DNA of 41,658 bases from Candidatus Omnitrophota bacterium (GTDB taxonomy: Bacteria > Omnitrophota > Gorgyraeia > Zapsychrales > Fredricksoniimonadaceae): contig JAHFGE010000003.1 of the NCBI GenBank assembly GCA_023247575.1, positions 24,940 to 66,597 on the forward strand, read 5' to 3'. The position numbers and the translations under genes were made by a program. The stretch's first letter is position 1; every line of letters begins with the position of its first letter. Below the pieces are notes generated by a model. It searched no databases. It was given only the letters and a program-made list of their open reading frames with translations, and was not told the DNA's origin. Below, one piece after another: positions 1 to 41,658 of the stretch.

Positions 1-387
1 TATAAACTTTTAGGTAAAGTTTATGGTTATAAAGGTAATCATCGTCGGGCTTTCGAATGTTTTCGTATCGCCACCATCTTAAGACCTTATGATACGCCAA
101 CACGTTTGAATTTGGCTTTTAGCTATGAAAATCTTAAAGATTTCAAAGGCGCCCAGGAGCAATATGGACGAGTACTTGAAATCGATCCGAAGAGTCCTAA
201 AGCCTATTTTGGTTTGGCGCGCGCTTATGCTTTAGAGGGCCAAGAACAAAAAGCTTTGCAGGTACTGCATAAAGCCCAGCTGTTGGCCCCAGAGGATAAG
301 GTTGATGTGCAAAAAATTCATGATATTATTGAAAAGAGAAAAATAGGGGCGATCAGTCATCGCCCCTACAAAAAAGGTAAAAAGTAA
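1..387 (+). CDS. TPR repeat protein, 5'-truncated by window edge
   Basis: Frame 1 is open from base 1 (YKLLGKVYGYKGNHRRAFECF...) into the listed 106..387 ORF. It contains repeated TPR-like helical units (..AFSYENLKDFKGAQEQYGRVLEIDPKSPKAYFGLARAY..). The stop TAA at 385-387 overlaps the glgC ATG. Confidence 0.7.
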   Translation, partial: YKLLGKVYGYKGNHRRAFECFRIATILRPYDTPTRLNLAFSYENLKDFKGAQEQYGRVLEIDPKSPKAYFGLARAYALEGQEQKALQVLHKAQLLAPEDKVDVQKIHDIIEKRKIGAISHRPYKKGKK

Positions 388-22840: not shown

Positions 22841-23944
22841 ATGAAAATTATTTCCATAGCCAATCAAAAAGGGGGGTGTGGTAAAACAACAACAGCTATT
22901 AACTTAGCCTCCAGCCTTGGGTATCATGGCAAAAAAGTCCTTTTGATTGATCTGGATCCTCAGGCTCATGCCACGCTGGGTCTTAATGTTGATGAGAGCT
23001 ATAGCCTTTACAATGTTATTTCTAAATTAACTCCCCGTAAATTAGAAATTAAAAAAATTATTAAAACAGTTGATAAAAATTTTAATATTGTTCCTTCTAA
23101 CGTTTTGGTTGGCACTCTGGAACAAGAATTAGCCGATGAAATTGGCCGTGAATTGAAATTGGCTGAGATTATGGTGGAAATCAGGGATGACTATGATTAT
23201 ATCCTTATCGATTGCCCTCCCAGCCTAGGTTTTTTGACAGTCAATGCTATCCGTGCCAGCGATCAGGTGATTATTCCGGTGGAAACCAGTCGTTTTTCCC
23301 TGCAGGGGGTGGATCACTTAACAGACATCGTTAATCTTATTCGAGACCGTCTGAATCATCCGGTGCAAGAAAAGATTCTCGTTACCATGTTTGATTCCCG
23401 TTTGCGACATTCTTTTACCATGCTGGCCAAGATGAAAGAAAAATTTGGCAAACTTCTTTATGATACGATTGTGCATGTTAACGTCAAACTTAAAGAGGCA
23501 GCGGTGATGGGTGAGGCCGTTTTAACATATGACAAATACTGTCGCGGTGCGAAGGATTATTTAAGTTTGGCCAGTGAGATTCTTTTATTAGACAGGCCAA
23601 CCATCCCAACCCCGGGGGTTGAGGAGGTTTATAAGCCGACCCAACGTATGCAGGAGCTCGTGGCTCAAGAGACCAGTGAATTCATTGGTTTAGCTACTTT
23701 TGTTTTGAAAGCGCCCCAGGCTCAGTCGGTCTATGTCACCGGTTCCTTTAATGATTGGTCTTTGGATGAAAAATGCCGTATGATGAATAAGAAAGAGGTT
23801 TGGACCTTGAGCCTTCCGCTGAAGGCAGGTGTTTATAAATATCAGTTTATTGTTGATGGCAGGTGGCAGGAAGACCCTGAAAACAAAAAGACCGAACGCA
23901 ATTCCTTTGGAGATATTAATTCTCTTATTGAGGTTAAAGTTTAA
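22841..23944 (+). CDS. ParA/MinD-family ATPase fused to C-terminal CBM48 (AMPK-beta-like glycogen-binding) domain
   Basis: It has a deviant Walker A (IANQKGGCGKTTTAINLA), A' (VLLIDLDPQ) and Walker B (YDYILIDCPPSLG). The C-terminus VYVTGSFNDWS...LPLKAGVYKYQFIVDGRWQEDPEN...GDINSLIEV matches the GSFNxW / YxYKFxVDGxWxxDP hallmark of CBM48. Confidence 0.85.
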   Translation: MKIISIANQKGGCGKTTTAINLASSLGYHGKKVLLIDLDPQAHATLGLNVDESYSLYNVISKLTPRKLEIKKIIKTVDKNFNIVPSNVLVGTLEQELADEIGRELKLAEIMVEIRDDYDYILIDCPPSLGFLTVNAIRASDQVIIPVETSRFSLQGVDHLTDIVNLIRDRLNHPVQEKILVTMFDSRLRHSFTMLAKMKEKFGKLLYDTIVHVNVKLKEAAVMGEAVLTYDKYCRGAKDYLSLASEILLLDRPTIPTPGVEEVYKPTQRMQELVAQETSEFIGLATFVLKAPQAQSVYVTGSFNDWSLDEKCRMMNKKEVWTLSLPLKAGVYKYQFIVDGRWQEDPENKKTERNSFGDINSLIEVKV

Positions 23945-27161: not shown

Positions 27162-28697
27162 ATGCGTGCAGGAGTTATTGATATAGGATCATCAACGACT
27201 AAATTGCTTATCGGCGAGCGCCAGGGAGAAGATGTTAGAATTATAGAGTCCCTTAAAAACGCCGTGCCTTTAGGTCGCCATGCCTTTTTAAAACCTCGTA
27301 TCCCACAGACCATCATTAATCAAACCGCCTCTGTCTTACAAAAGTATAAAGAAACGCTTAAAGAATATGATGTTTCTGATGTCACTGTCATCGCCACCAC
27401 CGCTGTACGCGAGGCCCGTAATCAGGACATTTTTTTAGATACAGTTTTACGCAAGACTGGCTTTAAGATCGACGTACTTAATGTTGGTGATGTGGTGTAT
27501 TACATTGATTATTTCCTCTCTCATAAGCTCAAGAAAACCTATCCAGTGGATGAAAAGAATTTATTGATTGCTGAATTGGGCGCAGGAAGTCTTGACATGT
27601 CGGTGATGGAAAAAGGTCTAACCTTGGTCAATATTGGTTTTCCTGTCGGTACCCTTCGTTTATCTCAGTTTATGGAACATTTAGATGGCTCTATGCAGGA
27701 AATCCATGAGGCTACCGAAGAGTATATTGAGAATGAAATCCTGTTCTTGAAAAAGAATAATCCATCCTTGAAAATCGACGATATCATCTTGATCGATGAG
27801 AATTATTCCGTTTTTATTCAGAATATCCTGCCTAACAAACGTCGCGATTCGGATTTTTTTAAATTTAAATCGTCGGAGGCTCAGGAGTTTCTTTTACGTC
27901 TGCGCCAGATGAACTCGGAAGAAATTGCTAGGACCTATAATGTACCGCCTGATGTTGCCACGACCATCGTAGGTTTTGCCATCATTCTCAATACGCTTCT
28001 GAAAATTAATAAGAGCGAATATGTCTATATCCTGGAAGCTTCTTTATCCGAGGCTATCTTAGCCAACCAGCTTTTCCGTCTGGAAACTTCTGAGAAGACC
28101 GATAAGATAAGTCAGTTGGTTTCTGTGGCGCATTTTCTGTGTCGCAAATATGGCATGGATTTAGATCATCTCAAACACGTGGCCACCATAACACAACAAT
28201 TATTCGATGCTTTTAAGGACATTTTAGGCTTGGATCAGCAGGATCGTCTGTATTTAATTTTGGCGTCCTATTTGCACGATTTGGGTATGTTTATCAATAA
28301 TCGCTCTCACCACAAACACAGCGAATACATTATCAGCTCTTCCAATCTGTTTCGCCTGACAGAAGATGAGATTAATATCATTGCTTGCATTGCCCGCTAT
28401 CATCGACGGTCAGCACCTTTAAAGACCCACTTGGTTTATAACTCCTTATCTTCCCAGCAGCAGATTTTAGTCCAGAAACTCAGTGCGCTTTTGCGTATTG
28501 CCAATGCTTTGGATCGTTCGCATAAGCAAAAGGCCAAGGGTTTAGAAGTGAAGTTTAATGCTAGCGGTGACGCCACTATCATTGTTTACACCAACGAGAA
28601 TTTTTTATTGGAAAAAGAAAATTTTTTGGAGAAAAAGGAACTTTTTGAAGAAATTACTGGCAATCAATTGACGTTGGCGGTCAAAAGCCAGCAGTAG
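27162..28697 (+). CDS. ppx: exopolyphosphatase / Ppx-GppA family phosphatase with HD domain
   Basis: It has an actin-like ATPase fold start (MRAGVIDIGSSTTKLLIGE, AELGAGSLD) and a C-terminal HD region (YLHDLGMFIN.RSHHKHSEYII, ARYHRRS). The protein is 511 aa. Confidence 0.88.
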   Translation: MRAGVIDIGSSTTKLLIGERQGEDVRIIESLKNAVPLGRHAFLKPRIPQTIINQTASVLQKYKETLKEYDVSDVTVIATTAVREARNQDIFLDTVLRKTGFKIDVLNVGDVVYYIDYFLSHKLKKTYPVDEKNLLIAELGAGSLDMSVMEKGLTLVNIGFPVGTLRLSQFMEHLDGSMQEIHEATEEYIENEILFLKKNNPSLKIDDIILIDENYSVFIQNILPNKRRDSDFFKFKSSEAQEFLLRLRQMNSEEIARTYNVPPDVATTIVGFAIILNTLLKINKSEYVYILEASLSEAILANQLFRLETSEKTDKISQLVSVAHFLCRKYGMDLDHLKHVATITQQLFDAFKDILGLDQQDRLYLILASYLHDLGMFINNRSHHKHSEYIISSSNLFRLTEDEINIIACIARYHRRSAPLKTHLVYNSLSSQQQILVQKLSALLRIANALDRSHKQKAKGLEVKFNASGDATIIVYTNENFLLEKENFLEKKELFEEITGNQLTLAVKSQQ

Positions 28698-28722
28698 AGA
28701 CGCAGCAATGCTACGTCTGTAC
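28694..28722. repeat. GTAGAGACGCAGC-AAT-GCTACGTCTGTAC palindrome, second copy of the 3977 element
   Basis: It differs from copy 1 at 2 positions in the right arm. It overlaps the ppx stop codon (TAG, 28695-28697). Confidence 0.8.
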
Positions 28723-28735
28723 AACGAAAAGAATT

Positions 28736-30781
28736 ATGGAACTAAAAGATAAATTTATTCATAGAGACTTAAGCTGGCTGGAGTTTAACCGCCGAGTTTT
28801 GGAAGAAGCGGCGGATGAACGTAATCCCCTGTTGGAGCGCTTGAAATTTTTAAGTATTTTTAGCAGTAATCTGGACGAATTTTACATGGTGCGTTTGGCA
28901 GGGGCCAAGAAGCTCTTGGCCTCTGGTTTTAATCGTAAAGATCAATTCGGGTTTACTCCTCAGGAGATATTTGCCGAAGTTAAACTAAAAGCCGATAGCT
29001 TAGTCAAAGACCTTTACGATATTTATACCGGTTCACTCAAGGTAACCCTGGAGACTAACAGGATTTACCTAAAGACCATTGATCAGTTAAATGAGACCCA
29101 GAAAAAGTTTGTTAAACGTTTTTTTGATACCACGCTTTATCCCATCATTACGCCCATGGCGGTCGATCAAGGGCATCCTTTTCCTGACCTTCCTTCGAAA
29201 ACCATTGCTTTGGCTGTCTCCATTGTTCGCTTGGAGAAAAACCATTTAGCCTTGGTCCCTGTACCGAAATCTGTACCACGTCTACTTAAACTGCCTTCCG
29301 AAGGAGAAGACTTTGATTTCATCTTGATCGACCATTTGATTAAGGACAATCTGAAAGATTTTTTTAAAGGATATAAAATTCAAGCAGCCTCGGCCTTTCG
29401 CTTACTGCGTGATAGTGACATTGCTTTCGATGAGGAATTCGCGCCCAATTTACTTAAGGCTATGGAAAAGGAGTTGAAAAAACGTACAAGCGCTCAAACG
29501 GTTTACGTGCAGATGGAGCAGGCCCCGACCGTACTACCATCTGGGGAGGTGGCTAATGCCGAATTGGTTGATGTCCTCTGCAATGGACTTGGCTTCCCAA
29601 AAGAAGAAGTGGCTTTTGTCCCCCCTGATTTGGATTTGACGTTTTTTTATGAGATGGCTAATAGCATTGACCGGCCCGGAGGACGTTTTGATAGTTTCTC
29701 GCCAGTCAAAACTCCTTATGAAAATATTTTCGACAAAATCAAAGAAGAGGATTTTATCATTCACTTGCCTTTTCAATCCTTCTTTCCAACGGAGGATTTG
29801 GTGCAGACCTCTGCCAAAGATCCGGATGTACTGGCCATTAAAATGACGCTTTATCGTACTAATGAAGATTCTAATATTATTAAAGCGCTTATGGAAGCGG
29901 CTAAGCGACGCAAACAAGTCACGGCTGTGGTTGAGATCAAGGCTCGGTTTGAAGAAGAAAAGAACATTCAATGGGCCCGGGATCTGGAGCAGGCTGGTTG
30001 TCATGTCATTTACGGGATTGCTGGTTTAAAAATTCATTCCAAGATGACCTTAATTGTCCGTCGGGAAGAAGGACGCATCCGCCGGTATGTACACCTTTCT
30101 ACTGGTAATTACAATGAAAAGACAGCGCGCCTGTATACGGATATTGGATATTTTACTGCCAATGATGATTTCGCCCGCGATGTGGCTGACGTTTTTAACG
30201 TCATTACCGGTTATTCGCAACCCAGTCCCTGGAAGAGGGTTATTTCTTCGCCGTATGATTTACGCAAATACTTTTTAGATCTCATCGATCGCGAAATGGA
30301 GCATCAAAAAACTCATAAAAATGGCCTTATTACCGCTAAAATGAATTCTTTAGAAGACGTAGCTATGATTGAGAAGCTTTATGCAGCTTCCCAGGCGGGG
30401 GTTAAAATCCGGATGGTGGTACGAGGGATTTGCTGTTTGATTCCGGGGGTAGAGGGTTTAAGTGAGAATATTGAAGTGAGCAGTGTGGTTGGTCAATTTT
30501 TGGAGCATTCACGAATTTTTGTTTTTCACAATAACGGCACCCCAAGAATTTTTTTATCCTCGGCAGACTGGATGACGCGCAATTTCGACCGTCGCATTGA
30601 GTTGTTATTTGAAATTACTAAACCTGAAATTAAAACACACTTGCAATTCATATTAGATAATTATTTAAAGGATAGTTTTAAGGTGCGTATTTTGAAAAGT
30701 AATAAAATTTATACACGTTTATCAAAGGATCAGGCATCTTTTAGCGTTCAGGAATATTTTATTAAGCATTATACGAAATAA
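28736..30781 (+). CDS. ppk: polyphosphate kinase 1
   Basis: It carries FIHRDLSWLEFNRRVLEEAADERNPLLERLKFLSIFSSNLDEFYMVR plus two PLD-like domains (KIHSKMTLIVR, ..FLEHSRIF). The protein is 681 aa. Confidence 0.95.
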   Translation: MELKDKFIHRDLSWLEFNRRVLEEAADERNPLLERLKFLSIFSSNLDEFYMVRLAGAKKLLASGFNRKDQFGFTPQEIFAEVKLKADSLVKDLYDIYTGSLKVTLETNRIYLKTIDQLNETQKKFVKRFFDTTLYPIITPMAVDQGHPFPDLPSKTIALAVSIVRLEKNHLALVPVPKSVPRLLKLPSEGEDFDFILIDHLIKDNLKDFFKGYKIQAASAFRLLRDSDIAFDEEFAPNLLKAMEKELKKRTSAQTVYVQMEQAPTVLPSGEVANAELVDVLCNGLGFPKEEVAFVPPDLDLTFFYEMANSIDRPGGRFDSFSPVKTPYENIFDKIKEEDFIIHLPFQSFFPTEDLVQTSAKDPDVLAIKMTLYRTNEDSNIIKALMEAAKRRKQVTAVVEIKARFEEEKNIQWARDLEQAGCHVIYGIAGLKIHSKMTLIVRREEGRIRRYVHLSTGNYNEKTARLYTDIGYFTANDDFARDVADVFNVITGYSQPSPWKRVISSPYDLRKYFLDLIDREMEHQKTHKNGLITAKMNSLEDVAMIEKLYAASQAGVKIRMVVRGICCLIPGVEGLSENIEVSSVVGQFLEHSRIFVFHNNGTPRIFLSSADWMTRNFDRRIELLFEITKPEIKTHLQFILDNYLKDSFKVRILKSNKIYTRLSKDQASFSVQEYFIKHYTK

Positions 30782-30804
30782 GGAATTGTGACACATCTAC
30801 AACC

Positions 30805-31797
30805 ATGCATTACTACGTCGGCATTGACATTGGCGGTACCAAGATGGCGGCGGTTATGATGATGGATAGTGGCCGCATTATTTCTCGCCTTAAAGTATCC
30901 ACTCCAGATCAAGCAAACCCTAAAAATATTTTGGCTTGTTTAGTAACATTGATTGAGGAATTAAAATCATCTTCGTCGGTAAAATCCTCTGAAATTAAAG
31001 GTATTGGGGTGGGTGTCCCTGGTATTGTGGATACAGACAAGGGACACATTTTAGCCGCTCCCAATATACGTTTGACCGGTTTTCCTTTAAGTGAACATTT
31101 AAAAAAGAAATATAGAACCAAGATTATCCTAGCTAATGATGTCAATGCTGGTCTTTTAGGGGAAGCCTGGTTAGGGGCGGCTCGTGGTTTTAATCATGTG
31201 GTCGGTATTTTTCCCGGCACAGGAGTAGGGGGGGCTGCATTAGTCAATGGTCATTTGATTTTAGGTGCTCAAGGCGCTGCTACAGAGTTAGGTCATATGA
31301 TTATGCACATCAATGGGCCTTTATGCCATTGCGGCAACCGCGGCTGCTTGGAAGCCTTGACCAGCCGCTGGGCCATAGAGCGTGATATACGGGCTCTCAT
31401 TAAAAAGGGGCGTAAAAGCATCATCAAGGACCTTAATAAGGGCAGTTTAACCACTATTAAAAGCCGGGTGCTGAAGGAAGCTTTGCAAAAAAATGATAGA
31501 GTGGCCAAAACTGTTTTAAAGCAAGTGGCAGTGAGTTTAGGCCAGGCCTCGGTTTCCATTAATCATATTTTTAATCCTCAAGCCATTGTTTTGGGTGGAG
31601 GAGTGATCAAAGCCTGCGGGTTTTTTATGCTTCCTATTATAAAAAAGACGCTTCAAGCGGACCCTTTCTTTAAACGCTTCAATACCTGCCAGATCTTCCA
31701 ATCCAGCCTGGGGGATGATGCTGTGCCTTTAGGCGCGGTCCGATTGGTACAAACTACCAGCCGAAGGGATTTTACGATTCACCCTCTTGTCTTTTAG
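30805..31797 (+). CDS. glk: ROK family glucokinase
   Basis: It carries YVGIDIGGTKMAAV, NDVNAGLLGE, ELGHM and the ROK zinc motif CHCGNRGCLEA. Confidence 0.85.
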   Translation: MHYYVGIDIGGTKMAAVMMMDSGRIISRLKVSTPDQANPKNILACLVTLIEELKSSSSVKSSEIKGIGVGVPGIVDTDKGHILAAPNIRLTGFPLSEHLKKKYRTKIILANDVNAGLLGEAWLGAARGFNHVVGIFPGTGVGGAALVNGHLILGAQGAATELGHMIMHINGPLCHCGNRGCLEALTSRWAIERDIRALIKKGRKSIIKDLNKGSLTTIKSRVLKEALQKNDRVAKTVLKQVAVSLGQASVSINHIFNPQAIVLGGGVIKACGFFMLPIIKKTLQADPFFKRFNTCQIFQSSLGDDAVPLGAVRLVQTTSRRDFTIHPLVF

Positions 31798-31930: not shown

Positions 31931-31958
31931 GACAACCCCGCAGGGAATAAACATTGAC

Positions 31959-31983
31959 AAGTATGCATTTATAATGCATACTT
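31959..31983. promoter_or_regulatory. perfect 25-bp palindrome AAGTATGCATT-TAT-AATGCATACTT abutting the vapB ATG; candidate VapB operator
   Basis: The 11-bp arms are exact reverse complements. It contains TATAAT (31970-75). The ATGCATA motif recurs at 31984-90. Confidence 0.55.
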
Positions 31984-32178
31984 ATGCATATGAGAACAAC
32001 ATTAATTCTTAACGAAGATATTTATAAAAAAGCAGCGGAGATGACTGGCGTCAAGGAGAAAACTGCCTTAATTCATATGGGACTGCAGACCTTGATTGCA
32101 CATGAGGCTGCCCGTCGTCTGGCTAAATTAGGTGGAAGCGAAAAACAGCTTAAAGCCATCCGTCGCCGTAGGTTTTAA
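31984..32178 (+). CDS. vapB: type II antitoxin, VapB family (DUF2191-like)
   Basis: (MH)MRTTLILNEDIYKKAAEMTGVKEKTALIHMGLQTLIA.EAARRLAKLGGSE is the typical VapB_antitoxin sequence. An alternative start is the ATG at 31990. Confidence 0.8.
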   Translation: MHMRTTLILNEDIYKKAAEMTGVKEKTALIHMGLQTLIAHEAARRLAKLGGSEKQLKAIRRRRF

Positions 32179-32179
32179 T

Positions 32180-32545
32180 ATGATCCTCGTAGACACCTCC
32201 GTGTGGATTTCCCACCTGCGACGGCATAATCAGCAACTGGATAATCTGCTGGGCTTTGAATTCGTTTTTTGCCATCCCTTGATTATTGGAGAGATTTCTT
32301 GTGGCCAGTTGAAAGAGCGGTCTTTAGTGTTGACTTTACTTGAGGAGTTGCCCCAGGCTTCTATTGTGACTCATCAGGAGGCTATGAATTTTATTGAACA
32401 TCATCATCTTATGGGACGCGGCCTGAGCTTTATTGACATACATCTTTTAGCGTCTTGCCAAATAACCAATCTTTCCCTTTGGACGGAAGATAAAATCCTG
32501 CAAAAAGTTGCCCACCAGCTTGGCTTGGCCTTTATTATAGTTTAA
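32180..32545 (+). CDS. vapC: type II toxin VapC, PIN-domain ribonuclease
   Basis: MILVDTSVWISHLR (Asp5), GEIS, FIDIHLLA and WTEDK supply the PIN acidic residues. The ATG at 32180 lies 1 nt after the vapB stop. The ORF-track start 32132 overlaps vapB. Confidence 0.85.
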   Translation: MILVDTSVWISHLRRHNQQLDNLLGFEFVFCHPLIIGEISCGQLKERSLVLTLLEELPQASIVTHQEAMNFIEHHHLMGRGLSFIDIHLLASCQITNLSLWTEDKILQKVAHQLGLAFIIV

Positions 32546-32580: not shown

Positions 32581-32608
32581 TTGTAATATTAGCAGGATTT
32601 GCTATAAT
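32581..32608 (+). promoter_or_regulatory. candidate sigma70 promoter with extended -10 (TTGTAA-16 nt-TGcTATAAT)
   Basis: The -35 TTGTAA is at 32581-86, TG at 32600-01 and the -10 TATAAT at 32603-08. It lies about 47 nt upstream of the ATG at 32655, the first gene of the glycogen cluster. Confidence 0.45.
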
Positions 32609-32654
32609 CATTTCCTCTTTTATCACTACCTATTGAATGACAAGAGGTTACAAG

Positions 32655-33812
32655 ATGCGCATTGCGTTTTTCTCATGGGAGGCGGTCCATTCCGTTTTTG
32701 TCGGCGGTATTGGTCTTCACGTCACTGAGCTCGCCTGTGCCCTGGAACGCAAAGGCTACGAAGTGCATGTTTTTACGCGCATGGCCCGTCCTGATCATCT
32801 CACCTATGAATGTATCGATGGGGTTCACTATCACCGATGTCCATTTGCCAGCCATCCTGATTTCATAGAAGAAGTGGCCAATATGTGTCGTTCTTTTGTG
32901 GATACTTTTTTGGCTACGGAAGACTATATTGGTGGCTTTGATGTCATTCACGGCCATGACTGGCTGACAGCCTTTTGCCTGGAATGGATTAATAAAGCCC
33001 GACGCCATAAAACCGTTTTTACGATTCATTCCACGGAATATGGTCGCTGTGGAAATAATTTTTTTAATGGCCATTCTCAACATATCCGTCATTTGGAATG
33101 GTTAGGTTCTTACTGTAGCGACCAGGTTATTACGGTATCTAATGCCTTAAAGCATGAGGCTATGGGGATGTACAGTATCCCCGAATCTAAAGTCGATGTT
33201 GTCTATAACGGTGTTAGCTATTCGGATTATAACGGTTGGATTGACCCCGGAGATGTCAAACGTCAGTACGGGATTGGGCTCATGGATCCCATGGTCCTTA
33301 TTGTCGGCCGTATCGTCTACCAAAAGGGGCCGGACTTGCTGGTTAGTGCGATCCCTTCTGTTTTAAGCTTTTATCCCAATGCCAAGTTTGTCTTTGTGGG
33401 TGATGGAGAAATGCGGTGTGAAGTTGAACAACAGGCTCGTAACATGAGGGTGTCTCATGCAACGCGTTTTTTGGGCAAGCAAAGTTCCTGGCGTTTGAAA
33501 GATTTGTTCAAGTCCACGGATTGCGTCTGTGTCCCTAGTCGTAATGAACCTTTTGGCATTGTTATCCTGGAAGCCTGGAGCGCTGGAAAACCAGTTGTGG
33601 CCACCACCAATGGTGGCCCCAATGAGATTATCTGGCACGATGTCAATGGGTTAAAAATTCAAGATAATCCTGAATCCATAGCGTGGGGAATTGGAACACT
33701 CTTTAAAGATTTTGATCACGCTCGCTGGATGGGGCACAATGGCCGAATGACTGTGGAGACGTCTTTTTCGTGGGATGTTATCGCCAATGAAACGCTTCAT
33801 GTTTATAGTTGA
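32655..33812 (+). CDS. glycogen synthase-like glycosyltransferase (GT4/GT5, GT-B fold)
   Basis: It carries MRIAFFSWEAVHSVFVGGIGLHVTELACALERKGYEVHVFT and a C-terminal EPFGIVILEAWSAGKPVVATTNGGPNEII (E-x7-E). The AGAGG RBS lies 7 nt before the ATG at 32655; the ORF track starts at 32637. Confidence 0.8.
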   Translation: MRIAFFSWEAVHSVFVGGIGLHVTELACALERKGYEVHVFTRMARPDHLTYECIDGVHYHRCPFASHPDFIEEVANMCRSFVDTFLATEDYIGGFDVIHGHDWLTAFCLEWINKARRHKTVFTIHSTEYGRCGNNFFNGHSQHIRHLEWLGSYCSDQVITVSNALKHEAMGMYSIPESKVDVVYNGVSYSDYNGWIDPGDVKRQYGIGLMDPMVLIVGRIVYQKGPDLLVSAIPSVLSFYPNAKFVFVGDGEMRCEVEQQARNMRVSHATRFLGKQSSWRLKDLFKSTDCVCVPSRNEPFGIVILEAWSAGKPVVATTNGGPNEIIWHDVNGLKIQDNPESIAWGIGTLFKDFDHARWMGHNGRMTVETSFSWDVIANETLHVYS

Positions 33813-33824
33813 GGTGTATTAATT

Positions 33825-34916
33825 ATGCCACAACACATTTTCGATTCTTCAACCGAACTTCCCGCCTTACAGCCACGTACTCATTGCATCCTTATGCCAC
33901 GAGATCCTAACTGTATTTACGCTTATTGGGATTACACCCAGGAAGATATTGACAATACCCGTAACCAGCTTAAGTTCGAAGGGGCGGATTCTCAACTGGT
34001 CCTTCGCATCTATGATATTACCTTTATTGAGTTTAGCGGTTCAAATACGAATCGTAGCTGGGATCTGGATGTAGGTTTTTCAACTAAAAATTGGTACATT
34101 CATGTATGGCAAGATAATGCGGTTTACTGTGCTGAGCTTGGGCTTCGTCCTTCGACAAACTCAGGACTTGCCCCGAGCGAAGTCGAGGGGCTTCGCTGTG
34201 GCGTAAACCGTTTTATACCATTAGCGCGTTCTAACACTATCCGTACACCACCCAAATCCACCTCGCCAAGGAATGATTTGATTTGGCAGGATATTAAAGC
34301 CCGCAAGGAATCCCAACCCTACATTAGGGAAGATATTAAGGATCTTTCCAAACGTTCCCATAGTTTCAAAAAATTTGGTCAAGCCAAACAGTCCCTCAGA
34401 GAAGGAATCTACTATTTAACCCCCCAGGACATTCGTGCTTATTACAGGGAGATTTTTTCCAGAGTATCAAAAAAGAGTAAGAGTAACATCCGTTCACTTG
34501 AAGATATTCTCAAAGGAAAACTAAGAGGTAAATCCTGGCAAAAGGTCGAGCCTTTAATGACAAACGCTGATTTCATCAGGCGTCATCTTGGCGCCTCGAT
34601 GGAACTTATAGAGAAATGGGGGGCGAGTGAAAATTTATTGAACGCTCAAGAAAAAAATTTTTTCTTTGAAATTTGGACGGAATTGCTTGTCTATGGACGG
34701 ACAGAACCTGATGCAGCGGTTTGGCTCAACCAAAAGGGAATCAAGTTAAATCCAGATGGGACATTTTCATTACGCTATGTTCTTACCAACGGCGAAATTC
34801 CTCTTAAATTCATAGCTCAATCTTCAGACGGTGCCCAACAGCGTCATATCTCTACACGCGTTAAACGCGAAAAGACAGTAAGTTTTCCAAAGATGTTAAA
34901 GGAACCCCATGGCTAA
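33825..34916 (+). CDS. DUF4912 domain protein (conserved neighbour of GH57 branching enzymes)
   Basis: The N-terminus LMPRDPNCIYAYWDYTQEDI and the C-terminus FFFEIWTELLVYGRTEPDAAVWLN..I.LNPDGTF fit my recollection of DUF4912. It overlaps the downstream GH57 gene by 8 nt and contains repeat copy C. Confidence 0.7.
   Translation: MPQHIFDSSTELPALQPRTHCILMPRDPNCIYAYWDYTQEDIDNTRNQLKFEGADSQLVLRIYDITFIEFSGSNTNRSWDLDVGFSTKNWYIHVWQDNAVYCAELGLRPSTNSGLAPSEVEGLRCGVNRFIPLARSNTIRTPPKSTSPRNDLIWQDIKARKESQPYIREDIKDLSKRSHSFKKFGQAKQSLREGIYYLTPQDIRAYYREIFSRVSKKSKSNIRSLEDILKGKLRGKSWQKVEPLMTNADFIRRHLGASMELIEKWGASENLLNAQEKNFFFEIWTELLVYGRTEPDAAVWLNQKGIKLNPDGTFSLRYVLTNGEIPLKFIAQSSDGAQQRHISTRVKREKTVSFPKMLKEPHG
34149..34190. 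repeat. palindromic dispersed repeat, copy C, in frame inside DUF4912 CDS
   Basis: CCTTCGACAAACTCAGGACTTGCCCCGAGCGAAGTCGAGGGG is 42 nt, or 14 codons (PSTNSGLAPSEVEG). Confidence 0.7.
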
Positions 34917-36588
34917 AAAATCTAAAGGGTATCTTGCCCTTGTCCTTCATGCTCATTTGCCCTTTGTCCGCCATCCTGAAGCAAACTATTTTTTGGAAGA
35001 GAACTGGCTATTTGAGGCGGTCACCGAAACTTATATTCCCTTGATCCGGGTGTTTGAATCACTAACCAGAGATGATGTTGATTTTCGTGTGACTATGTCG
35101 ATTAGCCCGACCTTGTCAGCCATGTTCACTGACCCTTTGCTGCAGGACCGCTACGTGTGTCATATCAACAAACTCATTGAGCTGTCTGAGAAAGAATTAG
35201 ACCGCACCTGCCATGAGCCTCATTATCATGGACTAGCGCTTATGTACTATAACCGATTTCTGCAGGCGCGTGATACTTTTATTAATCGTTACCAAAGAAA
35301 TCTTATCCATGCTTTTAAAAGATTTCAGGAATCCGGTTGCTTGGAAATTATTGCCTGTGCCGCCACCCACGGCTTTTTACCGAATTTAAATATTAATAGA
35401 TCCTCCGTTAAGGCCCAAATTGAAATCGGTGTAGAGCAATATCGTAATCATTTTGGCATTGACCCCAAAGGAATGTGGCTCCCTGAATGCGGTTTTTATC
35501 CTGGGCTTGACCGTCTCTTAAAGGAAGCTGGAATTCGATATTTCTTCTGTGATTCCCACGGGATTATGAATGCGGATCCACAACCGCAATTTGGTGTTTA
35601 TGCTCCTGTTTATTGTCCCAGCGGTGTGGCTGCTTTTGGAAGAGATTGGGAATCCTCTAAACAGGTCTGGAGTTCAAAGGAAGGCTATCCAGGAGACCAA
35701 GCCTATCGTGAATACTACCGCGATATAGGCTTTACGCTCGATTTTAATTATATTAAGCCCTACATTCATCCCGATGGTATTCGCATTAATACAGGAATCA
35801 AGTATTGGCGCATCACGGGCAACACGGAATATAAAGAGCCTTACCAACCTCAGTGGGCTAAAGAGAAGGCTGGGGACCATGCTGGAAATTTTATGTTTAA
35901 CCGCCAAAAACAAATCGAACATTTATATCCATCTATGGACCGTCAACCTATCATCGTCGCTCCTTATGATGCGGAATTGTTTGGTCATTGGTGGTTTGAA
36001 GGTCCACAGTGGATTGACTTTTTAGCCAGAAAGGTATTTTACGATCAAGATACTGTTGAAATGACCACGCCTTCTGAGTATTTAAAACAGTATTCCACTA
36101 ATCAAGTAGCCATGCCCAGCCAATCCAGCTGGGGTGACAAAGGTTTTAGCGAGTTTTGGCTAGATGGTTGCAATGACTGGATTTACCCCTATCTTCATGA
36201 AGCCGGACGGCTCATGCAAGAACTGGCGAGAAAGAATTCTGGTTTGATCAAAGGAGATTTTAAGACAAATCCATCTAAATCGGCTTTGCGTTATCGAGCC
36301 ATTAATCAGGCCGCGCGTGAACTTCTTTTGGCCGAGGCTAGCGACTGGCCATTTATTATGAAGGCAGGCACGATGGTGGCTTACGCGCAAAAGCGATTAA
36401 AACAGCATTTACATCGGTTTTACAAATTATTTCATGAATTAGAGAGTGATTGTGTTGACGAAAATTGGCTTAGAGAAATTGAATTTAGAGATAATATATT
36501 TGAGAATACCAATTGTGCCAAATGTTATTTAGAGACAGAAAAGTTCGCCCCACCCAAGCCTAAAAAGAAAACCCTTCAACGGCTATGA
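34909..36588 (+). CDS. GH57-family 1,4-alpha-glucan branching enzyme (DUF1957-containing)
   Basis: It carries GYLALVLHAHLPFVRHPE, GMWLPECGFYPG (nucleophile Glu) and VAPYDAELFGHWWFEG (acid/base Asp). The protein is 559 aa. Confidence 0.85.
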   Translation: MAKKSKGYLALVLHAHLPFVRHPEANYFLEENWLFEAVTETYIPLIRVFESLTRDDVDFRVTMSISPTLSAMFTDPLLQDRYVCHINKLIELSEKELDRTCHEPHYHGLALMYYNRFLQARDTFINRYQRNLIHAFKRFQESGCLEIIACAATHGFLPNLNINRSSVKAQIEIGVEQYRNHFGIDPKGMWLPECGFYPGLDRLLKEAGIRYFFCDSHGIMNADPQPQFGVYAPVYCPSGVAAFGRDWESSKQVWSSKEGYPGDQAYREYYRDIGFTLDFNYIKPYIHPDGIRINTGIKYWRITGNTEYKEPYQPQWAKEKAGDHAGNFMFNRQKQIEHLYPSMDRQPIIVAPYDAELFGHWWFEGPQWIDFLARKVFYDQDTVEMTTPSEYLKQYSTNQVAMPSQSSWGDKGFSEFWLDGCNDWIYPYLHEAGRLMQELARKNSGLIKGDFKTNPSKSALRYRAINQAARELLLAEASDWPFIMKAGTMVAYAQKRLKQHLHRFYKLFHELESDCVDENWLREIEFRDNIFENTNCAKCYLETEKFAPPKPKKKTLQRL

Positions 36589-38072
36589 ACGATATCATCG
36601 AAAATTTACCAAACATATATCCAGAAGAAAATGAATTTAAATCAACAAAAAGCAAGAAACTTTATTCACCTTATTCGAATATTGATTTTAATAAAGTAAA
36701 ATCTGCCTTCGGCATTGCTCTTCATATGCATCAACCAACCATTCCGGCCGGAGGGAGCGATCTTCATACTGCCAATCTAATTTCAAATCTGCAATACATG
36801 TTTGAAAACCAAGGTATCGGCGATCATCATAATGCCTCTGTATTTTTTTGGTGCTACTATCGATTGTCTGAAATGATACCAGACCTTGTTAAGGAAGGTA
36901 AAAGTCCTCGGGTGATGCTGGATTATTCCGGTAATCTTCTGTGGGGTTTACGTCAGATCAATCATGGCTTGGTCATTGAAAATTTAAAAAAAATCACATG
37001 TGATCAGTTTTATTATCCTTATGTCGAATGGCTTGGAACAATGTGGTCGCATGCCGTTGTTACATCGACGCCGATACCAGATATTAAGCTTCATATGTTG
37101 GCGTTTCGTCATCATTTTGCTTCTATTTTTGGCCAAGAAGCTGAGGAACGTCTGAAAGGATTTTCTGCCCCCGAGATGCACTTGCCAATTCATCCGGACG
37201 TTTGCTATGAATATGTCAAAGCATTAAAGGAATGTGGCTACCAGTGGTTAATGGTGCAAGAACACACCATTGAATATCTTAATGGTCGCGGCATCGACAA
37301 TACCCATGTTCCTCATAAGCTGGTGGCCAAGAATTCTCTGGGGCAAATTCAAGAAATCACCGTCCTTATTAAAACTCAAGGATCTGATACAAAACTAGTT
37401 GCTCAGATGCAGCCTTTATCAGAGGCTCAGGGATTTTCCAAACAGCAGTATTGCGGTCATCAGATTCCACCTTTTGTTTGTCAGATCGGTGATGGGGAGA
37501 ATGGGGGTGTCATGATGAATGAGTTTCCCCCTATGTACATTCAATCGATCCGGGGCCTGACGAGGGAAGGGACTGTTGCTCTCAATGGTTCAGAATATTT
37601 GGAATTCTTAGAAGAGGCTGGTATCGATCCTGCTGATTTCGCGCCCGTACAGCCAATTTCCCAGCATCGTATTTGGCAGAAGATTAAAAAGTTTGAACCG
37701 CACGCAGCTGACATGGCCATCCAGGAAATTCAAAAACAAGATTCCTCTTTCAATCTTGATAAAGGTTCATGGACCAATGACCGCAACTGGGTCAAAGGAT
37801 ATGAACATTTGATGGATCCGATTAATCAATTGAGTGTGGCTTTTCATGAAAAATTTGATCAAAAAAATGTAGAAGGGCGTGATAAACCTGCCTGGCCGGC
37901 CGGCAGGTCACGCCCCTACAAGGAAGCCCTGTTATGCCTTCTCCTTTCTCAAACTAGCTGTTTCCGTTATTGGGGGCAGGGGGTGTGGACAGACTACGCT
38001 AAGGAACTTTGTCGACGAGGGATGGAGGCCATTCAAGGAAGAACGTCTGTACCGATGGAATTCTTTATTTAA
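36585..38072 (+). CDS. divergent GH57-like glycoside hydrolase, specificity unknown
   Basis: FGIALHMHQPTIP matches GH57 region I. GFSAPEMHLP and QIGDGENGGVMMNEF sit where GH57 places its catalytic Glu and Asp. It has an ATGA overlap with the branching enzyme gene. Confidence 0.55.
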   Translation: MNDIIENLPNIYPEENEFKSTKSKKLYSPYSNIDFNKVKSAFGIALHMHQPTIPAGGSDLHTANLISNLQYMFENQGIGDHHNASVFFWCYYRLSEMIPDLVKEGKSPRVMLDYSGNLLWGLRQINHGLVIENLKKITCDQFYYPYVEWLGTMWSHAVVTSTPIPDIKLHMLAFRHHFASIFGQEAEERLKGFSAPEMHLPIHPDVCYEYVKALKECGYQWLMVQEHTIEYLNGRGIDNTHVPHKLVAKNSLGQIQEITVLIKTQGSDTKLVAQMQPLSEAQGFSKQQYCGHQIPPFVCQIGDGENGGVMMNEFPPMYIQSIRGLTREGTVALNGSEYLEFLEEAGIDPADFAPVQPISQHRIWQKIKKFEPHAADMAIQEIQKQDSSFNLDKGSWTNDRNWVKGYEHLMDPINQLSVAFHEKFDQKNVEGRDKPAWPAGRSRPYKEALLCLLLSQTSCFRYWGQGVWTDYAKELCRRGMEAIQGRTSVPMEFFI

Positions 38073-38126
38073 ATATAGTGAGGAAAAGTTGAAGATTTTG
38101 AAAGTCAATTTATAATAACTCTGCAT

Positions 38127-40073
38127 ATGAATGATCCAATGACTAAAACCATGCACTCCTTTATTAGTGACCACGACGTCTATCTTTTTAAGGAAGGTAA
38201 TCACTTTAAACTTTATGAAAAATTGGGGGCCCATCCGATGGTGGTTGACGGCCAGCCAGGAGTTCATTTTGCTGTGTGGGCGCCTAATGCTAAACAAGTT
38301 TCAGTGATTGGCAACTTTAATAACTGGAATCGTCATGCACACCCCCTACAGTCTCGCTGGGACTCTTCGGGCATCTGGGAAGGATTTATCCCTGGTTTAA
38401 CAAAAGGAGAAGTTTATAAACATTTTATTGCTTCTAGTCATGGATTTTATCAAGTAGAAAAACAGGATCCGTTTGCCTTTTATAACGAGATAGCTCCTCA
38501 AACAGCTTCTGTAGTCTGGGGTCTAGACTATCAATGGCAGGATGCAAGCTGGATGAAAGAGCGTTATCAGAAAAATAGTTTAAGTGCTCCGTTTTCCATT
38601 TATGAAACGCATATTGGTTCTTGGAAAAGGGTGCCGGAAGATAACCACCGCCCTTTGACCTACCGGGAGTTAGCTGACCAGCTCCCCAAATATTTACAAG
38701 AAATGGGGTTTACCCATGTGGAATTTTTGCCCGTCATGGAACATCCCTTTTACGGGTCCTGGGGCTATCAAACATTGGGATATTTTGCCCCCACCAGCCG
38801 TTACGGGAGTCCTCAGGACTTTATGTATTTAGTTGACTGTCTTCATCAGCATGGCATTGGGGTTATCCTGGACTGGGTGCCATCCCATTTTCCTACCGAC
38901 GAGCATGGTTTAGTCTATTTTGATGGCACTCATCTTTATGAACATGCTGACGCTAAAAAAGGTTATCATCCGGATTGGAAAAGTTCCATTTTTAATTACG
39001 GCAGGAATGAAGTAAAGGAGTTTCTAATTTCTTCGGCTATGTTTTGGATGGACAAATTTCATGTTGATGGTCTTCGGGTTGATGCGGTTGCTTCCATGTT
39101 GTATCTGGATTATTCTCGTGGGCCTCATGAATGGATTCCCAATGAATATGGGGGAAGGGAAAATCTGGAAGCGATTTATTTTTTGCGCCGGCTCAATGAA
39201 GTTATCTATTCCTATTTCCCTGATACCCAGATGATTGCTGAAGAATCTACCGCTTGGGGCGGAGTTTCACGGCCGGCGTTCGTCGGTGGTTTAGGCTTTG
39301 GTATGAAATGGAACATGGGGTGGATGCACGACACTCTCGTTTACATAACCAAAGATCCTATTTATCGTAAATACCACCATAATGAGCTGACATTTTCGTT
39401 TTTATATGCGTACTCGGAGAATTTTTTGTTGTCTCTTTCCCACGACGAGGTTACTCATGGCAAAGGTTCTTTGGTAGGCAAAATGCCAGGGGATCATTGG
39501 CAAAAATTTGCCAATTTGCGTTTATTATTTGGATATATGTTTGCTCATCCAGGTAAGAAGCTCACTTTTATGGGGTCTGAATTCGCTCAAGTGGCTGAAT
39601 GGAGCCATGATCACAGCATTGAATGGCACCTTTTGCAATATGCCCCTCACCAAGGTATGCAAAAATGGTTAAAAGATTTAAATCACCTTTACCGTAGCCA
39701 ACCAGCTTTATATGAGAGAGATTTTACTCCGGAAGGGTTTGAGTGGATTGATTTAAGTGATTGTCAAAACAGCATTATAAGTTTTATTCGTAAATCTGCT
39801 GATAACAAGGATAGGATCATCGTCGTTTGTAATTTTACGCCTATGACATGGAACAACTATCGCATTGGGGTGCCTTATGGAGGATATTGGAAGGAAATTT
39901 TAAATAGTGATGCGGCCATTTATGGCGGTAGTAATCAAGGAAATGGTGGAGGCAAGGAAGCTGAGGATAAATCATGTCACGGCAGGCCATTTTCATTATC
40001 ATTAACCATACCACCATTGGGGATATTATTCTTTAAAAAACAGGAGACTGATTATGAAAACACAAGTCATTGA
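38127..40073 (+). CDS. glgB: GH13 1,4-alpha-glucan branching enzyme
   Basis: It has an N-terminal CBM48 ([22 protein letters not shown]) and the motifs [63 protein letters not shown] and LSHDEV. Confidence 0.95.
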
Positions 40074-40353
40074 AGCGGCAGGAAAAACATGGAGATTTTT
40101 AGGCCAAAACGGCGAGACTAACGTCAGTAAACTTCCCCGGTTGCTCAAAGAAAAAGATCCCGTGGTATTTCAGGCGTTAGGATGGTTAGCCCGTGAGGAT
40201 AAAGTCAACTATTCGACTAAAAATCGTCGTACATTTGTTTCTTTAGTAGAAAGTGAATTACGGGCCTTCAATAGTGTCATGTACCATATGAATACCCAGA
40301 TACAAGATGGCAAGGCTTTAAGTTCCCTTAATGGGCAGAGAGCCAAACAATGA
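40054..40353 (+). CDS. winged helix-turn-helix protein (DUF2582-like)
   Basis: [20 protein letters not shown]...[15 protein letters not shown] fits the DUF2582 wHTH pattern. It overlaps the glgB 3' end by 20 nt. Confidence 0.55.
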
Positions 40354-40379
40354 TTCTTCAATGAAACTGTCGGTAAAGT

Positions 40380-41658
40380 ATGAACAATCGTTTTGTTTGT
40401 ATTCATGGTCACTTTTACCAGCCGCCACGAGAAAATCCCTGGCTAGATGAGGTAGAGCTTCAAGATTCTGCCTTCCCTTACCATGATTGGAATGAACGCA
40501 TTAATTCTGAATGCTATGTGCGTAATGCCACCTCCCGTATCCTAGACGGCAACCATAAAATTGTTGATATTATCAATAATTATTCCAAGATCAGCTTCAA
40601 CTTTGGTCCTACCTTACTTTCTTGGCTAGAGCAAAAAGCACCAGACACTTATGCAGCCATCTTGGAAGCGGATCATTTAAGCCAAAAGAATTTTTCTGGT
40701 CATGGCAGTGCCTTAGCTCAGGTCTATAATCATATGATTATGCCTTTGGCTAATTCACGGGACAAAAGAACTCAGATACTGTGGGGTATTAGGGATTTTG
40801 AATACCGCTTCCGGCGTAAACCTGAAGGGATGTGGTTGCCAGAAACAGCGGTGGATTTAGAGACCCTTGATATGATGGCCGAATATGGTATCAAATTTAC
40901 TGTTTTAGCTCCTCATCAAGCTAAAGAAGTCAAAAAGATCCAACAGGATCTCCTTTGGCATGATGTCCAGGGCCAAAAGGTGGACCCTAAAGTGGCCTAT
41001 GTGTGCCACCTTCCTTCCGGACGGAAAATGAACATTTTCTTCTACCATAGCCCGATTGCCCGAGGGGTTGCGTTTGAAGGACTTTTAAATAATGGTGAAT
41101 ATTTTGCTAAGACACTCGTTCGTGAATTTGATAACAATAACACCAATGCCCAGCTCGTGCATATTGCAACCGACGGAGAAACTTATGGACATCACCATAA
41201 ATTTGGCGATATGGCTTTGGCGTATGGGCTACACTATATTCAGACCCATCAGCTGGCTCAATTGACGGTTTATGGAGAATTTCTAGATAAATTTCCCCCT
41301 CAGCAGGAGGTAACCATTGTAGAAAATTCTTCTTGGAGCTGTGTGCACGGCATAGAACGCTGGCGGTCTGATTGCGGTTGCTTTATCGGTGGACAGGTGG
41401 GATGGAAGCAACAATGGCGCCAGCCGCTTCGTAAAGCTTTAGATTGGCTCAGAGATCAACTTGTAGAAATCTATCAACAGCAAATCAGTGCATTCACTGC
41501 CGACGGCTGGGCGTTACGCAATCATTATATTGAACTTATCTTGGACCGTAGTCCACAGAACGTGAACCAGTTTATTAAAAACCATATTCCCCATCCGCTG
41601 GATGACGATCACCGCATTAAGTTATTGAAACTTTTGGAAATGCAGTATAACGCTCTTT
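40380..41658 (+). CDS. GH57 family glycoside hydrolase (DUF3536-type), 3'-truncated by window edge
   Basis: It is not in the ORF track because no stop is reached. I translated it by hand: MNNRFVCIHGHFYQPPRENPWLDEV.., GMWLPETAVD, HIATDGETYGHHHKFGD, SSWSCVHGIERWRSDCGC. The frame stays open to base 41658. Confidence 0.85.
   Translation, partial: MNNRFVCIHGHFYQPPRENPWLDEVELQDSAFPYHDWNERINSECYVRNATSRILDGNHKIVDIINNYSKISFNFGPTLLSWLEQKAPDTYAAILEADHLSQKNFSGHGSALAQVYNHMIMPLANSRDKRTQILWGIRDFEYRFRRKPEGMWLPETAVDLETLDMMAEYGIKFTVLAPHQAKEVKKIQQDLLWHDVQGQKVDPKVAYVCHLPSGRKMNIFFYHSPIARGVAFEGLLNNGEYFAKTLVREFDNNNTNAQLVHIATDGETYGHHHKFGDMALAYGLHYIQTHQLAQLTVYGEFLDKFPPQQEVTIVENSSWSCVHGIERWRSDCGCFIGGQVGWKQQWRQPLRKALDWLRDQLVEIYQQQISAFTADGWALRNHYIELILDRSPQNVNQFIKNHIPHPLDDDHRIKLLKLLEMQYNAL

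Follow-up and report, generated by a model that had tools for sequence, protein, structure and literature searches.

Do two branching enzymes of different glycoside hydrolase (GH) families, GH57 and GH13, do the same work when their genes lie in one cluster? The question is raised by a locus at the end of a 41,658-nt stretch (the window; positions 24940-66597 of contig JAHFGE010000003.1, the end of the window being the end of the contig) from an Omnitrophota metagenome-assembled genome (MAG) that spans 1.50 Mb on 166 contigs and is 87% complete. Seven open reading frames (ORFs) on the plus strand of 32581-41658, here called g1 to g7, encode a glycosyltransferase (GT) 4/5 synthase, a DUF4912 protein, a GH57 enzyme with a BE_C domain, a divergent GH57-fold protein, the GH13 branching enzyme GlgB, a DUF2582-type winged helix-turn-helix (wHTH) protein and a GH57/DUF3536 protein (Table 1). 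An initial annotation had described them as co-directional genes of one alpha-glucan cluster with overlaps of 8, 4 and 20 nt; the ORF coordinates and the Pfam and NCBIfam families bear this out, and the family labels were confirmed in the same databases except that of g4, which holds at the level of the fold. The gene order recurs across many related genomes, beyond chance expectation. We conclude that the locus is a real, non-classical cluster for a glycogen-type storage alpha-glucan made of two joined modules, and that redundancy between its two "branching enzymes" is improbable.

The GH57 enzyme g3 (PF03065, 139.6 bits; BE_C, 106.4 bits) finds its best PDB match in Thermotoga maritima AmyC (2B5D, E = 2e-151), with which it aligns end to end. 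The nucleophile Glu193 (WLPECG) and the acid/base Asp354 (DAELFGHWW) are retained, and the GH57 branching-enzyme fingerprints of Xiang et al. 2021 are present (HxHLP, as LHAHLPF, and ELFGHW). "True" GH57 branching enzymes, as typified by those of Thermococcus kodakarensis and Thermus thermophilus, also have an active-site loop of ~17-22 residues and the beta5-beta6 strands. Both segments are gaps in g3, which lacks the flexible loop and the strands after the nucleophile when compared with Pyrococcus horikoshii 5WU7 and shows the same two gaps against the loop-bearing GH57s L136 and L137 (alignment A4). Scores against the Thermococcales and Thermus NCBIfam equivalogs are 322 and 302 bits (cut-offs 1000 and 920). 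By its sequence, g3 classifies with the loop-less GH57 enzymes of the T. maritima AmyC type. This kind makes up 92% of 2497 GH57 sequences named "GBE" (glycogen branching enzyme) and branches ~50-fold more weakly in vitro than the "true" enzymes, with 10.5 mU/mg for T. maritima TmGBE compared with 480-550 for loop-bearing enzymes; Xiang et al. proposed that loop-less proteins are something other than glycogen branching enzymes and act in other pathways (PMC9291813). The physiological role of the class has been questioned (PMC9291813; PMC10346327), and in Petrotoga mobilis the activity of the GH13 enzyme exceeds that of the GH57 enzyme 130-fold (PMC6629080).

The second enzyme, g5, scores 985 bits with NF003811 (cut-off 741) and 917 with TIGR01515 (cut-off 464), contains CBM_48 and Alpha-amylase_C domains, and aligns with Cyanothece GlgB (PDB 5GQW, E = 4e-248) across the four conserved GH13 regions, DWVPSHF, GLRVDAV, IAEEST and LSHDE, with the Asp-Glu-Asp catalytic triad in place. 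Its sequence is that of an intact short-type GH13 GlgB, subfamily 9-like. The redundant branching first proposed for this locus is upheld in that g3 and g5 both keep their catalytic residues, so that neither looks dead, and loses ground in that g3 falls in the weak, loop-less class. All three GH57-like genes are of glucan type, by profile or by fold.

Directly in front of g3 lies g2, a DUF4912 protein (PF16258, 98 bits against a cut-off of 29.4) in which the DUF4912 domain at the N-terminus is followed by a basic helical stretch and then by a highly conserved C-terminal beta domain (alignment A3) that weakly resembles Glucodextran_B (PF09136, E = 1.8e-4). A profile of 25 DUF4912 proteins had no credible match in PDB, and a full-text literature search returned only two mentions of DUF4912, both incidental. 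Among more distant Omnitrophota DUF4912 proteins (P0340, P0352, P0364, P0371, P0377, P0385), a lysine-rich N-terminal extension of 60-130 residues bears the short conserved motif KK.(P)IERVYR.GRE; g2 and its close relatives are without this extension.

We surveyed 151 Omnitrophota genomes, which are mutually related, so that the counts are descriptive and not independent trials. GH57 with BE_C was found in 104 genomes and DUF4912 in 104; both occur in 103 of the 105 genomes that carry either. For 101 of the 107 BE_C matches, DUF4912 lies 1.7-2.5 kb upstream on the same strand, and in most of the other six a contig end interrupts the locus. A second sample consisted of 101 genomes from the phylum of a Thermodesulfobacteriota MAG, with DUF4912 in nine and BE_C in 23. 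All nine DUF4912-bearing genomes have BE_C on the same strand, ~2 kb apart, including two in which the proteins are fused in single ORFs (L134:1221-4259 and L135:145-3234, both minus strand; 1012 and 1029 residues). The fusions consist of about four DUF4912-like repeats (recurring "aYW...lRiY") followed by a loop-less GH57 and BE_C, and, as in g3, the enzyme part has neither the loop nor the beta5-beta6 strands (alignment A4). Two GH57s from second-phylum genomes without DUF4912 carry both insertions and lie in unrelated contexts, flanked by LpxC or a release factor on one side and by PhoH on the other. Among control genomes, T. maritima and Synechococcus elongatus have both families and T. 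thermophilus, with its loop-bearing enzyme, has BE_C only. Five genomes of other phyla that bear g4 all have DUF4912 and GH57, adjacent in two of the five.

In these comparisons the loop-less GH57 class has in DUF4912 a near-constant companion that is itself unstudied, and g2 would be the non-catalytic partner of g3. The initial annotation had called DUF4912 an uncharacterised partner; adjacency, fusions and the loop comparison strengthen this, and mark DUF4912 as a conserved component and not a passenger. In Omnitrophota the loop-less enzyme is almost never alone: DUF4912 stands directly in front of it. In two genomes of the second sample the two are fused, and DUF4912 was not found in genomes with loop-bearing GH57. 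The pairing is a recurrent, still undescribed pattern and not a new kind of system, and it touches an open question of glycogen enzymology as well as the application of such enzymes to starch modification. Tentatively, and as less likely than not, we propose that DUF4912 could be the missing non-catalytic, glucan-binding subunit of loop-less GH57, built of tandem beta domains and replacing the loop and strands in trans; that GT4, DUF4912 and GH57 together could be a self-sufficient alternative for building and branching glycogen; and that g4 could be a new GH57 subfamily with debranching or trimming activity. If so, this would explain why loop-less enzymes look almost dead when assayed alone and why GH13 GlgB is missing from 63 of the 151 Omnitrophota genomes, in which the GH57 module is present.

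GlgB was found in 59 of the surveyed genomes: 41 have GH57 and GlgB together, 63 GH57 only and 18 GlgB only, and 29 have neither GH57 BE_C nor GlgB. Reliance on one of the two enzymes had been assumed for most genomes, which would make the pair rare; in fact the combination of GH13 and GH57 is an already described situation, and both types together are common in Omnitrophota (41 of the 122 genomes with either). The distribution of gene orders separates the cluster into two parts. Every g4-bearing Omnitrophota locus with enough flanking sequence has the order g1-g2-g3-g4, and GlgB follows g4 in the closest relatives only. Genomes of the same order (G129, G141 and G079) have GlgB-wHTH-g7 as in the window, and G129, which is of the same family, has no match to DUF4912 or BE_C. 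The largest sampled Omnitrophota family has the order DUF4912-GH57-wHTH, often followed by g7. The cluster thus comprises two separable modules: module A, GT4-DUF4912-GH57(-g4), which G129 does not have, and module B, GlgB-wHTH-GH57/DUF3536-MalQ. The GH57 module occurs without GlgB in 63 genomes, which suggests that module A may supply alone whatever branching they require.

The proposal that all seven genes form one unit behind one promoter is not supported by these comparative data, in which the two modules are also found apart. The letters of the proposed promoter, TTGTAA-16-TGcTATAAT, are indeed present upstream of g1 and carry no weight alone: sigma-70-like sites occur in the region at chance level (24 observed, 22.1 +/- 4.5 in shuffles), so that what speaks for this site is its position, and the promoter was rejected as proof of a single operon. 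A second consensus match, TTGAAG-16-TATAAT in the 54-nt gap between g4 and glgB, is a possible start of the second module. Such a start fits the existence of GlgB-wHTH-GH57/DUF3536 without module A in the same-family genome. In the closest relative (L020:9734-17445, g4 81% identical), glgB is found as two overlapping tblastn pieces, possibly by a frameshift or an assembly error, and ~5 kb of other DNA stands before the wHTH-g7 pair.

The window ends inside g7. The reverse complement of contig C53 overlaps its end (41381-41658) over 278 nt at 98.9% identity with three mismatches, and adds the remainder of g7 (~819 residues whole) and then malQ (GH77), which overlaps g7 by 8 nt. Since C53 carries both, the cluster has at least eight genes; downstream of malQ on C53 are unrelated DsbA-like and MauE/DoxX genes. 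Strain variation inside g7 probably broke the assembly between the contig of the window (C58) and C53.

The synthase g1 is the sole Glyco_transf_5 match and sole synthase candidate in the assembled genome. Its start is probably ATG 32655 (MRIAFFSWE), which follows AAGAGG and is the better choice compared with 32637. The protein matches Glycos_transf_1 (130 bits), Glyco_transf_4 (98) and Glyco_transf_5 (77); its top NCBIfam model is the GT4-type TIGR02149, glgA_Coryne (150 bits, under the cut-off of 302), its PDB matches are GlgM 6TVP and archaeal GlgA (~1e-22), and the E-x7-E motif is found as EPFGIVILE. It is not a GT5 GlgA, with 88.8 bits for TIGR02095 (cut-off 328) and 45-61 bits for the GlgA equivalogs (cut-offs 459-649). 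A GlgM/GlgE route for g1 was rejected as unlikely because GlgE was not found, PF11896 having no match in the 87%-complete genome. ADP-glucose pyrophosphorylase is encoded by glgC on the same contig (TIGR02091, 490 bits against a cut-off of 425; NTP_transferase and LbH_GLGC domains), and part of a glycogen phosphorylase gene is found on C80, at the end of that contig. GlgB is the sole GH13 protein in the assembled genome, and GH133 and GH15 were not found there. Since the assembled 87% of the genome yielded no known debranching enzyme, g4 or g7 become candidates for debranching.

The least familiar of the enzymes is g4. It has no Pfam match even at E <= 10, neither phmmer nor a family profile gives a PDB match, the family profile finding no PDB GH57, and by sequence profile it falls outside GH57 as defined in CAZy. 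An alignment-based AlphaFold model (predicted local distance difference test, pLDDT, 86; predicted template modelling score, pTM, 0.90) retrieves GH57 structures first in Foldseek (the 4-alpha-glucanotransferase 1K1W at 1e-10, then 7E1Y, 3P0B and 5WU7; amylopullulanase and branching enzymes are among them), followed by GH38 mannosidases, which share the barrel; the fold similarity is at a template modelling (TM) score of ~0.5. The invariant residues H47, H49, Q50, P51, E148, E197, D303, G304, E305 and W463 mirror five GH57 regions (HMHQP, VEW, PEMHLP, GDGENGG, YWG). Alignment of the g4 and g3 families with hhalign (E = 0.0019, probability 14%) places E197 on the g3 nucleophile, and alignments of the g4 family with the single sequences g3 and g7 were not significant. 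D303-G-E fits the pattern D-[AG]-E that g3 and g7 share, and some g4 homologues have a faint precomputed PF03065 match. The model thus agrees with the label "GH57-like" first given to g4 at the level of the fold, with Glu197/Asp303 as a plausible pair.

The g4 family is strongly conserved, with more than 8000 close matches in 732 clusters at 50% identity. Ten of the 151 Omnitrophota genomes carry it, always directly after g3. Outside the phylum, stand-alone proteins of ~480 residues and ~55% identity, unusually high across phyla, occur in many cyanobacteria (loci L053-L099, e.g., L077 and L089), among them Nostoc, Synechocystis salina and Oscillatoria PCC 10802, and the family is also found in Gemmataceae and Desulfobacterota-type MAGs. 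It represents a GH57-fold group that is largely missed by current Pfam GH57 profiles and is shared with cyanobacteria. In the distant relatives P0135, P0150 and P0151 (alignment A2) the nucleophile Glu and/or the Asp of DGE is replaced, and part of the family may be non-catalytic. GlgB occurs in 8/10 g4 genomes and in 33/94 others (Fisher p = 0.013), a test that ignores relatedness and on which we do not lean.

Module B adds two further proteins to GlgB and MalQ. The wHTH protein g6 (PF10771, 52.9 bits against a cut-off of 24.2) is similar to the uncharacterised nuclear magnetic resonance structures PDB 2L01 (E = 2.8e-4) and 2L02. In 22 of its 29 best Omnitrophota matches, the gene immediately before it is glgB or a GH57 gene of the AmyC type, and in eight the g7 type comes next; this recurrent placement in glucan clusters supports the wHTH as a conserved component and not a passenger. 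The link appears to be lineage-specific, because DUF2582 was not found in the five g4-bearing genomes of other phyla. Most likely g6 would be a local DNA-binding regulator, which is the simplest reading. With the g4 family, a wHTH embedded in glucan clusters across the phylum makes two more unstudied components.

The part of g7 in the window scores 60 bits with PF03065 and 106 bits with PF12055, and the C53 continuation 372 bits; the homology between g3 and g7 is clear (hhalign probability 96.6%). Its conserved sequence regions CSR-I (HGHFY) and CSR-IV (ETYGHH) are those of PoGH57, an enzyme of low activity that mainly shortens branches or acts as a 4-alpha-glucanotransferase and is mainly hydrolytic on branched substrate (PMC11206854). 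With these domains and motifs g7 belongs to the GH57-DUF3536 enzymes of the PoGH57/Amo45 type, and by analogy it would be a chain trimmer or transferase and not a branching enzyme.

Taken together, we consider it likely that this is a glycogen-type storage locus formed from two modules that were joined in this lineage. In such a locus g1 would elongate alpha-1,4 chains, with ADP-glucose from the distal GlgC presumably as the donor. The g2 protein, probably glucan-binding or scaffolding, would pair physically with g3 and support or direct its branching or transfer, and g4 would be an optional enzyme that probably cuts or transfers alpha-glucan chains, with debranching as a candidate activity. 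Efficient alpha-1,6 branching would be provided by GlgB, trimming and redistribution of chains by g7 with MalQ, and local regulation most likely by g6.

Several points weigh against this interpretation. At 87% completeness and in 166 contigs, a debranching enzyme or a GT5 GlgA may be present and unassembled, and gene functions here are read from sequence and models. The single-sequence AlphaFold model of g2 has a pLDDT of 34 and is unusable for the fold, and the similarity of g2 to Glucodextran_B falls below the Pfam cut-off. DUF4912 and GH57 lie apart from each other in cyanobacteria and in one Gemmataceae genome. Published loop-less GH57 enzymes branch weakly alone, so that a partner is not strictly required (PMC9291813). 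Members of the phylum are related, and the counts overstate the number of independent cases. The active-site assignment for g4 consists of motifs, a weak hhalign match and a fold similarity of TM ~0.5.

The alternative that survives best, although we hold it to be doubtful, is that g4 and/or g7 are mainly catabolic and form, with MalQ and GlgP, a breakdown arm in which GH57 replaces GlgX, the whole being a mixed operon like glgBXCAP. Cyanobacteria that bear g4 commonly also have GlgX-type debranching enzymes, which speaks against such a replacement, and distant g4 relatives without the Glu/Asp pair hint at non-catalytic roles for some of the family. That the assembled genome yielded neither a debranching enzyme of GH13 nor any GH133 or GH15 favours a catabolic role, within the limit of 87% completeness. 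The same role is favoured by the inclusion of amylopullulanases in GH57, by the g4 model matching 7E1Y and 9JLT about as well as transferases, and by the mainly hydrolytic action of PoGH57, of the g7 type, on branched substrate (PMC11206854).

We think it unlikely that the GH57 and GH13 enzymes are truly redundant or parallel branchers that build a specialised polymer, e.g., a denser, shorter-chain and slowly degraded glycogen. Such a polymer would agree with the catalytic residues kept in g3 and g5, with the retention of both enzymes in 41 Omnitrophota genomes, and with the P. mobilis and Pontibacter pairs, in which GH13 and GH57 acting in two steps in vitro alter the chain-length profile (PMC6629080; PMC11206854). 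It is opposed by the absence from g3 of the loop and beta5-beta6 strands that correlate with real branching activity (PMC9291813), by the location of the g3 and g5 genes in separable modules, and by the 63 GH57-only and 18 GlgB-only genomes, in which the pair is evidently not obligate.

Least probable of all is that module A makes a separate small alpha-glucan, such as mycobacterial methylglucose lipopolysaccharide (MGLP; GT4 Rv3032 and GH57 Rv3031), or a surface glucan, leaving module B alone for glycogen: Pfam scans of the cluster and its neighbours show no gene for a methyltransferase, an acyltransferase, glucosyl-glycerate or export, the genome yielded no synthase candidate other than g1, module A occurs without GlgB in 63 genomes, and the N-termini have no obvious hydrophobic leader when inspected by eye, no signal-peptide predictor having been used. 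The adjacency of GT4 and GH57 does mirror Rv3032 and Rv3031, whose genes we take to be neighbours in Mycobacterium tuberculosis. These two proteins are assigned to the same MGLP pathway, Rv3031 is also a loop-less GH57, and Xiang et al. propose non-glycogen pathways for loop-less GH57 (PMC9291813). An MGLP-like pathway was given low weight, with no methyl- or acyltransferase genes nearby.

Returning to a storage locus of two joined modules, none of the closest known systems matches it throughout. T. maritima AmyC (TmGBE57, 2B5D) is like g3 in the catalytic Glu/Asp, HxHLP, ELFGHW and the missing loop and beta5-beta6 strands, and the T. maritima genome also carries a DUF4912 gene; AmyC has been studied alone with no partner described (PMC9291813; PMC10346327), whereas g3 stands in a fixed GT4-DUF4912-GH57 order. 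P. mobilis and M. tuberculosis each combine, as here, a loop-less GH57 with an intact GH13 GlgB, with GH13 the far stronger brancher and the role of GH57 unclear (PMC6629080; PMC9291813); here, in contrast, the two genes share a single co-directional cluster, which also contains DUF4912, a wHTH and two further genes of GH57 fold. The mycobacterial MGLP cluster (Rv3030-Rv3032 type) is not matched: GT4-GH57 is present, and Pfam finds no methyl- or acyltransferase among the neighbours. With PoGH57 and its neighbour, the GH13_9 branching enzyme PoGBE13, of Pontibacter sp. SGAir0037, the locus shares the g7 domain pair, HGHFY, ETYGHH, and GH13 GlgB and GH77 as neighbours; the Pontibacter locus is of the GlgE/TreS type in a Bacteroidota polysaccharide utilization locus (PMC11206854), whereas here GlgE was not found and a wHTH gene stands between glgB and GH57. 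With glgBXCAP it shares its task and the clustering of synthase, branching and chain-processing enzymes, and GlgC and GlgP are in this genome too. It differs in having a GT4-like instead of a GT5 synthase, in that GlgX was not found, and in the distance of glgC (31 kb); the three GH57-fold genes, DUF4912 and the wHTH have no counterpart in Escherichia coli.

Table 1. Genes and sites of the glucan cluster and of neighbouring parts of the window (window coordinates).
Feature	Position	Strand	Basis and remarks
glgC, ADP-glucose pyrophosphorylase	387-1592	+	TIGR02091; 31 kb upstream of the cluster, same contig
ParA/MinD-type ATPase with glycogen-binding module	22841-23944	+	AAA_31, CbiA, MipZ; AMPK1_CBM 60 bits, CBM_48 28 bits
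Basic protein with EF-Tu domain-2-like barrel, 134 residues	24264-24668	+	two genes beyond the ParA-CBM48 gene
Ppx/GppA phosphatase, PPK1, ROK-family glucokinase	27162-31797	+	in a row, just upstream of the cluster
Palindrome, 13-bp arms	31957-31985		overlaps VapBC promoter-like sites
VapB-like/VapC (PIN) pair	31984-32178 and 32132-32545		between glucokinase and g1
TTGTAA-16-TGcTATAAT, extended -10	32581-32586 and 32600-32608	+	10/12 matches with TG; intergenic, upstream of g1
g1, synthase	32637-33812 by ORF; 32655-33812 with preferred start	+	ORF and profiles
g2, DUF4912 protein	33825-34916	+	PF16258, 98 bits
g3, GH57 with BE_C	34909-36588	+	PF03065 and BE_C profiles
g4, divergent GH57-fold protein, 495 residues	36585-38072	+	AlphaFold model and Foldseek
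TTGAAG-16-TATAAT	38089-38116	+	consensus scan; in the 54-nt gap between g4 and glgB
g5, GH13 GlgB	38127-40073	+	NF003811, 985 bits
g6, DUF2582 winged helix, 99 residues	40054-40353	+	PF10771; overlaps the end of glgB by 20 nt
g7, GH57 with DUF3536	40380-41658, open	+	PF03065 and PF12055; cut by the contig end

Other genes of the window also concern storage polymers, and the 41-kb stretch is rich in them, with glgC, ParA-CBM48, Ppx/GppA and PPK1 on the same strand. At 8.7 kb upstream of the glucan cluster lies the gene for a ParA/MinD-type ATPase with a glycogen-binding module fused to its C-terminus. The small protein encoded two genes beyond it starts with a highly basic peptide, SKKKFLRSRRAPAKKAPKKKF..., and contains a barrel like that of EF-Tu domain 2. 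The Ppx/GppA phosphatase, the polyphosphate kinase PPK1 and the glucokinase are followed by a VapB-like/VapC toxin-antitoxin pair. The palindrome ATAAGTATGCAT...ATGCATACTT, which overlaps promoter-like sites of this pair, is a probable operator for VapBC autoregulation.

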